From the IMG/VR virus record IMGVR_UViG_3300023184_004051, positions 1 to 64,000 of that record: a stretch of 64,000 bases of DNA; one strand, 5' to 3'. Below are positions 35,681 to 40,593 of this stretch, one piece after another; the stretch's first letter is position 1; each line of letters starts with the position of its first letter. The notes under the pieces were generated by a model, which was not told where the DNA came from, did not search any database, and saw only the letters and a list, made by a program, of their open reading frames with translations. Source of the DNA: a virus. The position numbers and the translations under genes are program-made.

Positions 35681-36295
35681 TTGTGTGTCCTATCCCTCGT
35701 CAAAGGCAGGCGCGTGGTAGTTGCGGTGCGAGGAATGGCTCTCGCACTCACAGTCTCGCTCTGCATTTTGCTATCGGGAGGAAGTCAGGTTTCACCACCC
35801 GCTTCCGCCACGCCCGAAAACTGCAATCACGGATGTAGTTGGACAATCAACGGTTTGACCTACAAGGTTCCAAACCGAACCTTCAACATCAGGCCGACGA
35901 CGACAACGACAACTCCCCCCATCACCACTACAACGGTTCCACCTGTCACGACAACGACAGTGAAACCGTATGTCGCCCCTCCGGTTGTTCCAAAAGTCAC
36001 TACAACGACTGTCGCCCCAAGCCCCATCAACGGTAATCCCTATGGGGTCACGGCTGCTGATGTGGCTGCGTGGACACGAGTTGCCATTTGTGAGGAAGGT
36101 GGCAACTGGCACATTCGTGGTGGAATGTACTCAGGCGGTCTTGGCATCAGCAACTACAACTGGTCGTATTACTCACGAGGTATGGGCGTTCCTGCCAACG
36201 CTGCTGATGCAACGCCAATCCAACAGATTGCGGTTGCTAAAAAAATCAACGCTGGGTATCAGGTTCCCGACCAATACGGGTGCGCCGCTTGGTGA
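35681..36295 (+). CDS. Secreted Rpf-like lytic transglycosylase
   Basis: Signal peptide, Thr/Pro linker, W.RVAICEEGGNW...YSGGLG...W...ADATPIQQIAVA. Start uncertain (35681-35735). Confidence 0.85.
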   Translation: MCVLSLVKGRRVVVAVRGMALALTVSLCILLSGGSQVSPPASATPENCNHGCSWTINGLTYKVPNRTFNIRPTTTTTTPPITTTTVPPVTTTTVKPYVAPPVVPKVTTTTVAPSPINGNPYGVTAADVAAWTRVAICEEGGNWHIRGGMYSGGLGISNYNWSYYSRGMGVPANAADATPIQQIAVAKKINAGYQVPDQYGCAAW

Positions 36296-36348
36296 AAAGT
36301 AGACCATAGGCACGGCATCCAAAACCGTGTCTATGGTACTCTTTCGCT

Positions 36349-38493
36349 GTGCTGAAACCGACAACGGATTTGACCGCCGTAAGCCTCTTTGCAGGGGTTG
36401 GCGGGTTTGACTTGGCATTAGAGCGACAAGGCGTAAAAGTCGTCGCTGCGGTGGAAATAGACAAGAACGCCAGAGGGGTTCTTGCACACCGTTTTCCAAA
36501 CAGCACGCTCTTTCCCGATGTCACGGAGGTCACAGGTGAGCAACTTATTTCAGCAGGATTTGTTCCCGAACGAGGCATCCTCACCGGAGGCTTCCCCTGC
36601 CAAGACCTCAGCGTTGCTGGAAAACGGGCCGGTTTGGCTGGCAAGCGTTCTGGCCTCTTTTGGGAAATCGCTCGCCTCATTGACGAACTCACGCCGCAAT
36701 ACTTCATCCTCGAAAATGTCCCCGGTCTTTTGTCATCTAACAGAGGACAAGACTTTGGAGCCGTTCTCGGGGCGCTGGTTGAGCGCGGGTACGGGGTCAC
36801 CTACCGAGTTTTGGATGCTCAATACTTTGGAGTCCCCCAACGCCGCCGTCGAGTGTTCATTGTCGGAAGTTTTGGAGATACCGGGGCCACAACTAGTGAA
36901 ATACTCGCTCTCTCCGAGGGCTTGTCAGGGTATCTTGAACAGAGCATCAAGAAGGAACAAGAAACTTCCACCACTCCTAAACGCCGCACTAGAAGCGGTG
37001 GCGCAGAAGGAAGCGTGACTTCACCACAAACGCTGGCATTTGACACGCAGTTTGGGTCTAACGCAAATGTGTTTGAGGACATTTCACCAACCCTGAAGGC
37101 TTCGCAGGCAGCGCCAAGTTTCACCGAAGTCGGTATGGAGCCGATTTTCTTTGACAGCGCCACTCACGGGGATGGCGCTCGTATTGCTGAAAAGACCATT
37201 CCAACTTTGACTTCCCGTATGGGAACGGGCGGGAATAACACCCCCCTTGTCGCCTACGCCGACCCAATCATCGGCATTGACCAAGAACTCAATGCCCGTG
37301 AGAACATCATTGGCTCGCTCGTCGCCGGTGCAAATAGCGGAACGCAAATACAGGCAGTTGCCTACTCGGTGCGTGAGGATGCACAGAGCAACACTTTCAG
37401 CGCAACCGAACTCTCGGCAGTCAACGCCTTGCAAGCCCACCAACCATCACCACAAAGTCATCACGCTCAAACCTTCATCGTGGAAGTCGAGCCGACGATT
37501 TTTCCAATCCAAGATGGTCGAGAGATGAACCACCAGCAGAACGGCATCGGCGTGGGTAGTGAAAACGACCCCGCCTACACCCTCCTTGCCACAGGCGGTC
37601 AAAGCATCGCAACAGTTTCGCCCGCAATCACCTCAACCGTTCGTCGCCTCACTCCAAAGGAGTGTGAGCGGCTTCAAGGATTTCCCACCGTAGAAAACAT
37701 TGGTATTATTGAGTGGTGTTCAGACCCTCTAAAGAACTATGTGGATGCGGAAAACCAAAATCCCAAGTCGCCATCACCTGCTTTGAGTGTCGCAAACGAA
37801 CAGCCGAGCGAGACTGCGAAATCTGCGGAAAACATTTCACCTACAAACGCTCATCAAACCGCCGAACCTGCTCTGGTCAATGTGGAAGTCAACTGCGAGG
37901 GCGAAATGCTGGAAATACACAGTCAAGGAAAGTTGATATTGTCTGTGAATACTGCGGAGAAGTCAAGCAGGTCAGCCCATCCTCTGCTAAACGCAGATTT
38001 TGTTCCACGGCTTGTGCTTACATTGCAAACTCTGGGTCTAATAACGCTCAATGGCAAGGTGGCATCACCAACGAGCGAGACAAGTTTGACAACAGTAAAG
38101 AGTGGCGTGCCGTTCGTAAGGCTGTCTGGCAACGAGATGACGCTACTTGCCAAAGATGTCGTATCCGATTTGACCATACAACACCCACCTACCACACCCA
38201 CCACATTGTTCCTTTCGGACACGAACCACTTAGAACAGAACTTACAAACCTTGTGTTGCTCTGTAATCCCTGCCATCATTGGGTTCACTCAAACGCCAAC
38301 CAACGGGGTGACTACTTACAGGTTCCACCTACGGGCGAAGCAACCGTGGACAGAGTTCCGCATTGACGAAAAGAAGGGTTTGATTTCACAAGCCGACGCT
38401 CCCCGCTACAAGCAAATGGGAAATGCCGTTGCTGTTCCCTGTGTCGAATGGATTGTGAAGCGGCTCGTTGAGATTGACAGGGCTACGAGGTGA
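36349..38493 (+). CDS. C5-cytosine DNA methyltransferase with in-frame insertion
   Basis: SLFAGVGG, GGFPCQDLS, ENVPG, PQRRRRVF, RRLTPKECERLQGFP...WT...RYKQMGNAVAVP. Confidence 0.92.
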   Translation: MLKPTTDLTAVSLFAGVGGFDLALERQGVKVVAAVEIDKNARGVLAHRFPNSTLFPDVTEVTGEQLISAGFVPERGILTGGFPCQDLSVAGKRAGLAGKRSGLFWEIARLIDELTPQYFILENVPGLLSSNRGQDFGAVLGALVERGYGVTYRVLDAQYFGVPQRRRRVFIVGSFGDTGATTSEILALSEGLSGYLEQSIKKEQETSTTPKRRTRSGGAEGSVTSPQTLAFDTQFGSNANVFEDISPTLKASQAAPSFTEVGMEPIFFDSATHGDGARIAEKTIPTLTSRMGTGGNNTPLVAYADPIIGIDQELNARENIIGSLVAGANSGTQIQAVAYSVREDAQSNTFSATELSAVNALQAHQPSPQSHHAQTFIVEVEPTIFPIQDGREMNHQQNGIGVGSENDPAYTLLATGGQSIATVSPAITSTVRRLTPKECERLQGFPTVENIGIIEWCSDPLKNYVDAENQNPKSPSPALSVANEQPSETAKSAENISPTNAHQTAEPALVNVEVNCEGEMLEIHSQGKLILSVNTAEKSSRSAHPLLNADFVPRLVLTLQTLGLITLNGKVASPTSETSLTTVKSGVPFVRLSGNEMTLLAKDVVSDLTIQHPPTTPTTLFLSDTNHLEQNLQTLCCSVIPAIIGFTQTPTNGVTTYRFHLRAKQPWTEFRIDEKKGLISQADAPRYKQMGNAVAVPCVEWIVKRLVEIDRATR
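37716..38366 (+). CDS. HNH endonuclease with zinc ribbons, nested out of frame in the C5 methyltransferase
   Basis: Several CxxC motifs, WQGG, W.AVRKAVWQRD..TCQRC, HHIVP...NLVLLCNPCH..VH; TATTAT-N6-GTG start. Confidence 0.88.
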   Translation: MFRPSKELCGCGKPKSQVAITCFECRKRTAERDCEICGKHFTYKRSSNRRTCSGQCGSQLRGRNAGNTQSRKVDIVCEYCGEVKQVSPSSAKRRFCSTACAYIANSGSNNAQWQGGITNERDKFDNSKEWRAVRKAVWQRDDATCQRCRIRFDHTTPTYHTHHIVPFGHEPLRTELTNLVLLCNPCHHWVHSNANQRGDYLQVPPTGEATVDRVPH

Positions 38494-39497
38494 AATCAAC
38501 CATCCTTCTAGGCGATGTTCGGAAGCGCCTTTTGGAAATCCCTGACGAGACAATCCAAACCGTAATCACCTCCCCGCCTTACTTTGGCTTACGGGACTAT
38601 GGGGTAGACGGTCAGATAGGTTTGGAAAAATCACCTGAGGACTTCGTGGATGCACTTGTTGAGTTGTTCCGTGAAGTCCGCCGTGTGCTGAAATCTGATG
38701 GAACAGTCTGGCTCAACTTGGGCGACAGTTATTGGGGCGGTAAGGGTCAGTCTGCGAATGGCGGTGCTGAACACCAAGCGGAGAGAGCGAAGCGTGGCGC
38801 AAGCCTCAACCAAGCGCATCAAACGCTCGGTGGTAAAAACCAAACCCGACCAACCGACGGGAAACACCACACCATCAAGCCCAAAGACCTCATCGGCATC
38901 CCGTGGCGTGTCGCTTTTGCCCTACAGGATGACGGCTGGTATTTGCGCTCAGACATCATTTGGTCAAAACCGAACCCAATGCCTGAAGCAATGAAAGACC
39001 GGCCTACAAAGGCTCACGAGTATCTGTTCTTGCTTTCCAAATCACCAAAGTATTACTACGACCACAATGCCATCAGAGAACCGCTTAGTGAGGCCACAAA
39101 AAAGCGTGACCTTGCCCCAAGGGGGCGCTCCCAAAATGGAGGCGGTAGTGAAAAGAGTATGGCTGGATATTCTTACACACCCGAACTTGGAAATATGACG
39201 AGCAACCCACTAGGGCGCAACCGCCGTTCGGTTTGGAGCATCAACACAAAACCATTCAAGGGCGCTCACTTTGCGGTAATGCCCGAAGCCCTTGTAGAGC
39301 CGTGTGTCCTTGCCGGTTCAGCACAGGGGGACACAGTTCTTGACCCCTTTATGGGAAGCGGAACGGTTGCTGTTGTGGCGAACCGTTTTGGAAGGAACTT
39401 CGTGGGAACCGAACTCAACCCTGCATATGCTGAAATCGCCAAGACGAGGATTGTGGATGCAGCCCCCTTACTCAATGAGGTGAACATCGTTGACTAA
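38490..39497 (+). CDS. DNA methyltransferase (N4-C/N6-A)
   Basis: TSPPY, WLNLGDSY, HFAVMP, VLDPFMGSGT. Confidence 0.93.
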   Translation: MKSTILLGDVRKRLLEIPDETIQTVITSPPYFGLRDYGVDGQIGLEKSPEDFVDALVELFREVRRVLKSDGTVWLNLGDSYWGGKGQSANGGAEHQAERAKRGASLNQAHQTLGGKNQTRPTDGKHHTIKPKDLIGIPWRVAFALQDDGWYLRSDIIWSKPNPMPEAMKDRPTKAHEYLFLLSKSPKYYYDHNAIREPLSEATKKRDLAPRGRSQNGGGSEKSMAGYSYTPELGNMTSNPLGRNRRSVWSINTKPFKGAHFAVMPEALVEPCVLAGSAQGDTVLDPFMGSGTVAVVANRFGRNFVGTELNPAYAEIAKTRIVDAAPLLNEVNIVD

Positions 39498-40593
39498 TGC
39501 CCGTATCCTCATTGGCGATGCCCGCAAGCGTCTTGCTGAAATCCCTGATGGCTCAGTTCGTTGCGCCGTGACTTCACCACCCTATTTTGGATTGCGTGAC
39601 TACGGGACTTCAGATTACGAAGGTGGCGACCCGAACTGCGAACACACGATTTCAGCGACAGATGCGGATGGGAAAGCGGTCTTTGCCGAGCGTGTGACCC
39701 GTGGTGATAGGTCTGCTTGCCTGAAGTGTGGGGCTACCCGTGTTGACAGCCAAATGGGTTTGGAACAAACTCCTGCCGCCTATGTTAGTGAAATGGTTGG
39801 CTTGTTCCGTGAGGTCAAGCGTGTTCTTGCTGATGACGGAACCCTGTGGCTCAACCTCGGAGACTCCTATGCGGGAGGTGGTGGTGGAAACTACAACAAG
39901 ACCGGCATCTCCCAAGCGGGCGGTCAGCACATCGCCAATGTCCGCAATCGCCCAGATTGGTTGCAAAACGCTGGTGTAAAGCCGAAGGACTTGATGGGTG
40001 TTCCTTGGCGAGTGGCTCTCGGATTACAGCAAGACGGTTGGTACCTCCGCAGCGACATCATTTGGCACAAGCCCAATCCGATGCCTGAGAGCGTCACCGA
40101 CAGGCCGACCAAAGCCCACGAGTATGTCTTTCTCCTTTCCAAATCACCTAAATACTTCTACGACTACGAAGCGGTCAAAGAGGATGGCGTGATGCCCGCC
40201 GGATACAAAGCGGCAAAGGGAAGTGCTGAAAGGTATGGGATGGAGGGCGTGAACGCTCGACCACCGGAATACAAGGTCTATGACGGGAAGCGGAACCGCA
40301 GGTCGGTTTGGACAATAAACACCAAGCCGTTCAAGGGAGCGCATTTTGCCGTGATGCCAGAGGCGTTGGTGGAACCGTGCGTCTTGGCAGGCTCGGAAAT
40401 CGGGGATACGGTGCTTGACCCTTTCACCGGAAGTGGGACTGTAGCCGTCGTAGCAATGCGTTTTGGAAGGCACTTCATCGGCACAGAACTGAACCCTGAG
40501 TATGGTGAAATCGCTCGCACACGGATTGAGGGCGACCAACCTCTAATGAACAATGTTGTTTTGGACTTCAGCACAAAGGCGACAAATGACTGA
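39490..40593 (+). CDS. DNA methyltransferase (N4-C/N6-A), tandem paralog
   Basis: TSPPY, WLNLGDSY, HFAVMP, VLDPFTGSGT; extra CxH...CxxC loop. Confidence 0.93.
   Translation: MTNARILIGDARKRLAEIPDGSVRCAVTSPPYFGLRDYGTSDYEGGDPNCEHTISATDADGKAVFAERVTRGDRSACLKCGATRVDSQMGLEQTPAAYVSEMVGLFREVKRVLADDGTLWLNLGDSYAGGGGGNYNKTGISQAGGQHIANVRNRPDWLQNAGVKPKDLMGVPWRVALGLQQDGWYLRSDIIWHKPNPMPESVTDRPTKAHEYVFLLSKSPKYFYDYEAVKEDGVMPAGYKAAKGSAERYGMEGVNARPPEYKVYDGKRNRRSVWTINTKPFKGAHFAVMPEALVEPCVLAGSEIGDTVLDPFTGSGTVAVVAMRFGRHFIGTELNPEYGEIARTRIEGDQPLMNNVVLDFSTKATND

Follow-up and report, generated by a model that had tools for sequence, protein, structure and literature searches.

Homing endonuclease genes residing in essential or useful genes are thought to be tolerated only by way of a self-splicing intron or an intein. 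Here we analyze a predicted HNH endonuclease gene that lies, in another frame of the same strand, inside a C5 cytosine DNA methyltransferase gene of a virus (IMG/VR record IMGVR_UViG_3300023184_004051, 108,670 bases long, positions 1 to 64,000; this whole 64,000-nucleotide stretch is called the window below). The closest described system is the ShiLan domain (Gosselin et al. 2023, PMC9957025), which hides an out-of-frame HNH gene that starts with GTG 18 bp inside the insert and stops at its end (Arsenault, Gosselin, and Gogarten 2025, PMC11855218). The methylase frame of ShiLan is free of stops, there is no intron or intein signal, and leaderless initiation is probable (PMC11855218). The 2025 work, based on about ten actinophage genes, also gave Pacc40 gp60 as the second case of an out-of-frame nuclease-like open reading frame (ORF) in a methylase (PMC11855218), and it suggested a third route to tolerance, in which the insertion stays in frame and is translated through.

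Like ShiLan, the window element is an insertion of about 200 codons at a conserved site of a phage methylase, with a patchy distribution among close relatives; in both, the host frame is open and the HNH gene occupies the host +2 frame, starts at a GTG a few codons in, and stops at the 3′ junction. The hosts belong to the same enzyme family, Constella gene 104 (with nested gene 105) being homologous to the window methyltransferase. ShiLan, however, is inserted directly after motif VIII, whereas the window element lies between motifs IX and X, and the two HNH proteins (Constella gp105 on the ShiLan side) differ in architecture, cannot be aligned outside the catalytic core, and have best PHROGs that do not overlap. 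Unlike actinophage ShiLan, the window element family is found mainly in AT-rich environmental phages and amounts to at least 468 protein clusters. Identity with the ShiLan element itself is therefore rejected, since HNH lineage, insertion site, and PHROG matches all differ. The window element nevertheless fits the ShiLan-type kind in having a conserved-site insertion absent in close homologs, an open host frame, an insert-filling HNH gene, and no detectable intron or intein features. The principle was already published in 2025, and the window element is a third, independent family of the kind; what is new relative to the ShiLan papers is the family size, the stop-avoidance statistics, the lack of peptide constraint, and a conserved −10 box.

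Among named phages, the nearest relatives of the window methyltransferase gene at the DNA level are cluster J mycobacteriophages of the genus Omegavirus. Annotations of three phages of this cluster, Constella (L002), Thibault (L003), and Dallas (L004), divide the homologous methyltransferase into at least two pieces; a gap of 20 to 80 nucleotides precedes the part carrying motifs IX to X, and a further free-standing HNH gene follows immediately downstream. The host frame that carries ShiLan is broken in Thibault.

Pacc40 gp60 likewise combines an open host frame with an out-of-frame nuclease-like ORF within a methylase, but it belongs to a different pham (helicase-methylase), its ORF has 160 residues and an uncertain HNH assignment, and that ORF, unlike the window element, has free-standing relatives upstream of related methylases. 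An HNH nuclease, a conserved coding target, and presence/absence polymorphism are features that the window element shares with I-HmuI of group I introns and with the free-standing Mob and Seg endonucleases of T4-like phages. Group I introns, however, restore the host gene by splicing and usually contain in-frame stops, and free-standing HNH genes sit between genes or split the host into two ORFs, whereas the window host ORF is continuous. Inteins of the same methyltransferase family are translated in frame with the host, as the window insert would be, but they carry the nuclease in the host frame and excise themselves; a Hint domain is absent from the window insert, whose nuclease is encoded out of frame with the host. 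M.EcoHK31I alpha/beta resembles the window locus in being a C5 methyltransferase gene with a second functional ORF in another frame (PMC2836561), although its beta chain is part of the enzyme (motif IX) and not a mobile nuclease.

The insert and the nested HNH gene

The methyltransferase ORF spans positions 36,349 to 38,493 on the plus strand (714 codons), matches Pfam PF00145 at 1e-63, and carries motifs I, IV (PCQ), VI (ENV), VIII, IX, and X in one frame, features by which its product is predicted to be a C5 cytosine methyltransferase. Comparison with insert-free alleles (L005, L006, and L008) places the insert at 37,687 to 38,346 on the plus strand, between the motif IX tail (LQGFP) and WT. 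The bounds, at about 37,687/37,690 to about 38,343/38,346, give a length of 654 to 660 nucleotides, a multiple of three; each junction is uncertain by one or two codons because two flanking codons vary among alleles. In the insert-free viral contigs (L005/L007, L006, and L008), whose catalytic cores are 82 to 94% identical to that of the window, the motif IX tail runs directly into WT and then into the window's downstream sequence. The methyltransferase frame is stop-free through the whole insert in the window, and the third forward frame closes after 12 codons. The 220-residue read-through peptide, that is, the insert read in the methyltransferase frame, matched no Pfam family and no PHROG. 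In one insert-free relative (L008:3001-4366), the methyltransferase breaks into overlapping ORFs of 287 and 179 codons where a GA-rich repeat encodes alternating Glu-Arg; the repeat may be prone to slippage and cause frameshifting, or the break may come from misassembly.

The nested ORF, at 37,716 to 38,366 on the plus strand (216 codons), encodes three CxxC zinc-ribbon pairs and an HNH core and was identified by profile matches to Pfam (HNH family PF01844 at 1e-7; zinc-finger matches were weak), PHROGs, and PDB entries 6me0, 5h0m, and 6ghc. Residues H163, H164, N179, C146, C149, C184, C187, H188, and H192 are invariant across the HNH family, and the catalytic His, the Asn, and the CxxC pairs make the product a predicted nuclease of the HNH endonuclease family (PF01844). 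The ORF listing gives the gene as 37,713 to 38,366 (217 codons, methyltransferase frame +2), as GTG 37,713 is also in frame and is directly preceded by a TGA in the HNH frame; it is GTG 37,716 that aligns with the ATG start of family relatives. The HNH stop codon, a TGA at 38,364 to 38,366 (plus strand), is formed by host codons 18 to 20 nucleotides past the insert, and the HNH ORF covers all of the insert except about 26 nucleotides. The HNH frame is the −1 frame of the host gene, and the host gene reads as HNH frame +1. The initial annotation had proposed an insert of about 660 nucleotides between LQGFP and WT, a methyltransferase frame that stays open across it and rejoins motif X, and a complete zinc-ribbon HNH gene filling it in another frame of the same strand; the alignment to insert-free relatives, the 714-codon ORF, and the ORF listing with the PF01844 match bear out these three points.

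Rfam returned no match at E ≤ 10 within window positions 37,000 to 39,000, and across 10 family loci (63 kb) it returned no intron match at E ≤ 1, only two transfer RNA matches and two subthreshold unrelated ones. Pfam detected no Hint or intein domain in the window insert, which starts with Thr-Val (Val or Ile in relatives) and is followed by Trp. A group I intron is rejected on the lack of a catalytic RNA core by Rfam and on the mere 26 or so nucleotides of insert outside the HNH ORF, and an intein on the missing Hint domain, junction residues that are not those required, and a nuclease in the other frame, in agreement with the earlier remark that the insert lacks intein signatures and leaves no room for a group I core. 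Translational bypass of the T4 gene 60 type is rejected because there is no in-frame stop anywhere in the insert, and a host gene split into two ORFs because the methyltransferase ORF is continuous. An intron, a bypass, or a split gene would need neither the purging of stops nor a length that is a multiple of three, and these readings are disfavored accordingly; bypass and unrecognized excision both appear disfavored as explanations of how the insert is tolerated.

Stop avoidance and peptide constraint across the family

Synonymous-codon permutation within the window HNH gene left the methyltransferase frame open in 16% of trials, and recoding with phage-wide codon usage left it open in 14%; both nulls keep the HNH amino acid sequence, which is itself already shaped. 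The other long ORFs of the phage contain a mean of 6.7 frame +1 stops per 218 codons (minimum, 2), and none of 139 segments was stop-free. Because shuffling of the window alone falls short of significance, the argument rests on the family and on empirical baselines such as this one.

A scan of viral contigs with the single HNH protein found nothing, but alignment-seeded scans of genome, viral, and metagenome contigs recovered the family, at about 33 loci, 19 of them nonredundant. The family HNH proteins are 43 to 57% identical to that of the window over their full length, and the loci have G+C contents of 25 to 41%. Every intact copy has its HNH gene within a C5 methyltransferase ORF, placed between motif IX tail and WT as in the window and in the same frame relation, and the methyltransferase frame is stop-free across it. 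Two copies carry lesions: in one (L044), two indels of a single base each displace both frames jointly, and the other (L019) has one nonsense codon within the HNH gene with the methyltransferase frame still open. By comparison, stops interrupt frame +1 in every one of the 46 more distant HNH homologs that the same scan recovered outside any nesting, at a mean of 10.3 per 200 codons. Per-copy permutation probabilities, which are conservative, range from 0.0007 to 0.17, with a product of about 1e-33 over the 19 copies; these copies are related, though their proteins share about 53% identity, a distance at which synonymous sites are largely randomized. The synonymous shuffling suggested in the initial annotation thus failed to reach significance for the window taken alone (P = 0.16 and 0.14) and succeeded for the family, and the finding that would have counted against the idea, namely insert-bearing homologs that usually have stops in the methyltransferase frame, did not materialize in any intact copy. 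Three loci (L029, L031, and L032) represent a deletion variant without the first zinc ribbon, in which the insert is about 190 codons long and both frames are kept open. At another, a transfer RNA gene directly follows the stop of the insert-bearing methyltransferase (L023:3750-3823).

When 1.84 billion representative proteins were searched with a profile built from the read-through peptides, 468 clusters matched at E ≤ 1e-3, of which 218 reached E ≤ 1e-30. Among the best 150 of the 468 clusters, nearly all matches are full length and lie in proteins of 400 to 1,100 residues, and most end 35 to 50 residues before the C terminus. Pfam, run on 10 of the 468 clusters, identified nine C5 methyltransferases and one protein with a Dam domain only; in three of the nine C5 methyltransferases, the Pfam stretch as listed reaches position 291 of the 324 in the profile and stops immediately ahead of the insert. 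With matches ending 35 to 50 residues short of the C terminus and the Pfam stretch ending before the insert, motif X therefore stays in frame downstream. Of the proteins examined in this set, P0099, P0135, and P0148 combine the insert with a Hint/LAGLIDADG intein near motif IV, so that one gene holds two different mobile elements, and the Dam-only protein (P0164), which has the insert, may be a methyltransferase fusion. With the HNH protein itself as query, a word-index search found just two called proteins (P0001 and P0002); this near-invisibility in protein databases arises most likely because gene callers omit fully nested genes.

The read-through peptide has no sign of constraint of its own. 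Within the family, mean pairwise identity falls from 0.53 for the HNH frame to 0.354 for the methyltransferase frame and 0.344 for the noncoding third frame; null expectations (synonymous HNH permutation with frame +1 kept stop-free) for the latter two are 0.311 and 0.299, respectively. The excess identity over the null is equal in these two frames, and BLOSUM scores are alike. Differences per site at HNH codon positions 1, 2, and 3 are 0.36, 0.31, and 0.48, the signature of HNH coding and the reverse of what is expected for a constrained peptide in the methyltransferase frame. By this comparative evidence, the host frame of the insert is selected only for the absence of stops, the peptide being otherwise unconstrained as far as sequence comparison can tell. 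AlphaFold2, run on the 714-residue protein with a 17-sequence alignment, gave a mean predicted local distance difference test score (pLDDT) of 50.5, with 71 to 96 in the catalytic core, 71 to 78 in motif IX, 20 to 46 in the insert, and 73 to 91 in the C-terminal motif X helix, which belongs to the 3′ part of the methyltransferase (WT, linker, and motif X; positions 38,347 to 38,493, plus strand).

Mobility, expression, and alternative readings

The window methyltransferase core is 92 to 93% identical to the cores of two insert-free methyltransferases (L005 and L006) and only 28 to 45% identical to those of insert-bearing ones, whose HNH proteins share 43 to 56% identity with that of the window. 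HNH proteins are more similar than enzyme cores in every pair that includes the window and on average over all 105 pairs (for L012 versus L025, identity is 0.62 for HNH and 0.38 for the core), and the insert hosts span two motif I subfamilies and many different target-recognition regions. An HNH gene more similar than its hosts' cores, in hosts so varied, fits repeated invasion of one conserved target sequence, and the variety of hosts argues against a nuclease matched to one methylation specificity.

The nested gene may have a promoter of its own. A consensus scan identified a promoter-like site at 37,682 to 37,709 (plus strand), in which the host F-P codons form a −35-like hexamer, followed by a spacer of 16 to 17 nucleotides and an extended −10 box, TGGTATTAT, at 37,701 to 37,709, which ends 6 nucleotides upstream of GTG 37,716. 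The window contains six instances of the arrangement TGNTANNNT-N6-RTG, where 1.9 are expected (0 of 100 shuffles reach six), and all six sites are on the plus strand, each followed by an open ORF of 67 to 714 codons. One of them is the methyltransferase's own GTG 36,349, where an extended −10-like box with the same 6-nucleotide spacing (36,334 to 36,351, plus strand) marks a leaderless-type start; four more, besides those of the methyltransferase and the HNH gene, precede ORFs of 67 to 271 codons. The extended −10 box that the initial annotation had placed exactly 6 nucleotides before GTG 37,716 is confirmed by these positions, and the six sites fit its claim that other genes here share that spacing. 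Across the family, a TAnnnT hexamer, mostly TATAAT, stands at −12 to −7 from the HNH start codon in 13 of 19 copies, and such a conserved box before the start codon suggests a leaderless HNH mRNA transcribed from an internal promoter.

We consider it likely that the element is a homing-endonuclease cassette that persists by being translated through as a loop, without an intron or intein. The initial annotation had already proposed a homing element that spares its host gene by no known splicing route, and of its three options (a tolerated loop, bypass, or unrecognized excision) the evidence favors the loop. The HNH gene sits in the conserved motif IX tail as a cassette whose length is a multiple of three and whose host-continuing frame is free of stops. 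In this scheme, ribosomes would translate straight through, yielding a single 714-residue methyltransferase in which an unconstrained loop of about 218 residues separates motif IX from motif X, so that the host enzyme is probably made with an extra loop. The HNH protein would be made separately from its own start codon 26 to 29 nucleotides within the insert, probably from a leaderless transcript for which the insert supplies the −10 box and the host F-P codons may supply a −35-like hexamer. The nuclease would cut insert-free alleles at the coding sequence of the conserved motif IX, and repair would copy the cassette in.

Several points weigh against this translated-through loop. The open frame of the window alone is not significant once the HNH protein is fixed (P of about 0.15). 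AlphaFold2 is as poor for the target-recognition region as for the insert, and since low pLDDT extends to that region too, a disordered loop gains weak support from it. Six of the 19 copies have no −10 box at the 6-nucleotide spacing, at least one copy (L010) has a Shine-Dalgarno-like GAGG in its place, and the putative HNH promoter is a consensus match. The open frame might be selected against polarity on the coupled downstream methyltransferase genes instead of for enzyme activity.

It is unlikely that the HNH protein is a domesticated partner of the methyltransferase, such as a restriction-like or antidefense nuclease linked to a protecting methylase or a packaging-type HNH, instead of a selfish one. 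The nearest solved phage structure, 5h0m, is a small phage HNH endonuclease, one PHROG match is annotated as terminase small subunit, and the element is very widespread and mostly intact, all of which would suit such a partner. The same HNH family, however, accompanies very different target-recognition regions and two motif I subfamilies, the closest methyltransferase relatives of the window do without it, and it is always found at one conserved site, as homing elements are.

We regard as improbable an unrecognized excision at the RNA or protein level (a new ribozyme class, splicing by host factors, or an atypical intein), which would leave a methyltransferase of about 495 residues. The insert does lie in a highly conserved motif, a typical place for introns and inteins, and the authors of the 2025 paper left this possibility open (PMC11855218). 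Excision would, however, make an open frame and a length divisible by three unnecessary, yet every intact copy has both; there is no Rfam match, the HNH ORF takes up all but about 26 nucleotides of the insert, and at the protein level a Hint domain is missing and Trp, not Cys, Ser, or Thr, follows the insert.

Dual coding, with the read-through peptide as a functional methyltransferase domain and selection in both frames, is very doubtful. The peptides align well by eye across the family and their profile is very sensitive in searches, yet their excess conservation equals that of the noncoding third frame, the codon-position pattern is that of the HNH frame only, no Pfam family or PHROG matches, and pLDDT is low. 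Least credible of all is a dead methyltransferase with a frame open by chance, or an HNH domain reached by −1 frameshifting and fused to the N-terminal part of the methyltransferase: the window-alone probability of about 0.15 and the position of the HNH gene in the −1 frame of its host would allow it, but stop avoidance is family-wide, motif X is retained in frame, a TGA directly precedes GTG 37,713 in the HNH frame of the window, and conservation of both the −10 box and the start codon speaks for separate initiation of the HNH protein.

Other features of the locus and wider implications

The methyltransferase gene has a second long ORF in an alternative frame, over motifs IV to VIII and about 50 further codons (36,461 or 36,482 to 37,018, plus strand, methyltransferase frame +1). 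Counterparts occur in relatives at L004:1664-2140, L038:2010-2489, L013:2016-2744, and about 1180 to 1680 of L093 (phage P1 dmt), and the frame is open for 150 to 243 codons in 14 of the 18 methyltransferase genes examined, AT-rich ones included. Where this ORF overlaps the conserved motifs, its apparent conservation merely reflects the methyltransferase frame. Within the 30 codons that follow motif VIII, substitutions at alternative-frame positions 1, 2, and 3 are 0.38, 0.28, and 0.62, a pattern of coding in the alternative frame, whereas a control segment follows the methyltransferase frame; amino acid identity there is 0.54 in the alternative frame versus 0.42 in the methyltransferase frame. 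With a 59-residue piece of this ORF, tblastn matched 128 phage records, among them P1 dmt; there too the match lies outside the frame of the annotated gene, and it closes an open stretch of about 165 codons. The peptide has no Pfam or NCBIfam match; PHROG 16143 matches it, but called proteins of this kind number only 35, which does not bear out the idea that it belongs to a large annotated family. Together these patterns make the second ORF a candidate conserved overlapping gene, for which the M.EcoHK31I beta chain, encoded in another frame inside the alpha gene (PMC2836561), is a precedent.

Directly downstream of the C5 methyltransferase lie two more DNA methyltransferase-like ORFs on the plus strand, at 38,490 to 39,497 (335 codons) and 39,490 to 40,593 (367 codons), which are mutually paralogous; from the C5 methyltransferase onward, each stop codon overlaps the next start codon, giving a translationally coupled block of three. 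The ORF just upstream (35,681 to 36,295, plus strand) has a threonine/proline-rich repeat region and a C-terminal part that we take to resemble resuscitation-promoting-factor or transglycosylase domains, and the insert-free contig L006 has a similar gene in the same place.

Hundreds of independent copies in very different phages turn an anecdote into a pattern with measurable selection, in which stops are purged and the peptide is free. At present, annotation pipelines mislabel insert-bearing loci as long methyltransferases, and the site between motifs IX and X marks where C5 methyltransferases accept large insertions. If the reading as a translated-through loop is true, introns and inteins would be joined by a third persistence strategy, of which this would be the largest known family by a wide margin and in which the cassette is never removed, and C5 methyltransferases would tolerate an unconstrained loop of 190 to 230 residues between motifs IX and X. 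More tentatively, and with less than even confidence, we suggest that in this largest known family the read-through-loop strategy is combined with a −10 box that becomes a full promoter only beside the −35 hexamer of the host F-P codons (17-nucleotide spacing); if so, the nuclease would be expressed, as a leaderless mRNA, only after correct integration.

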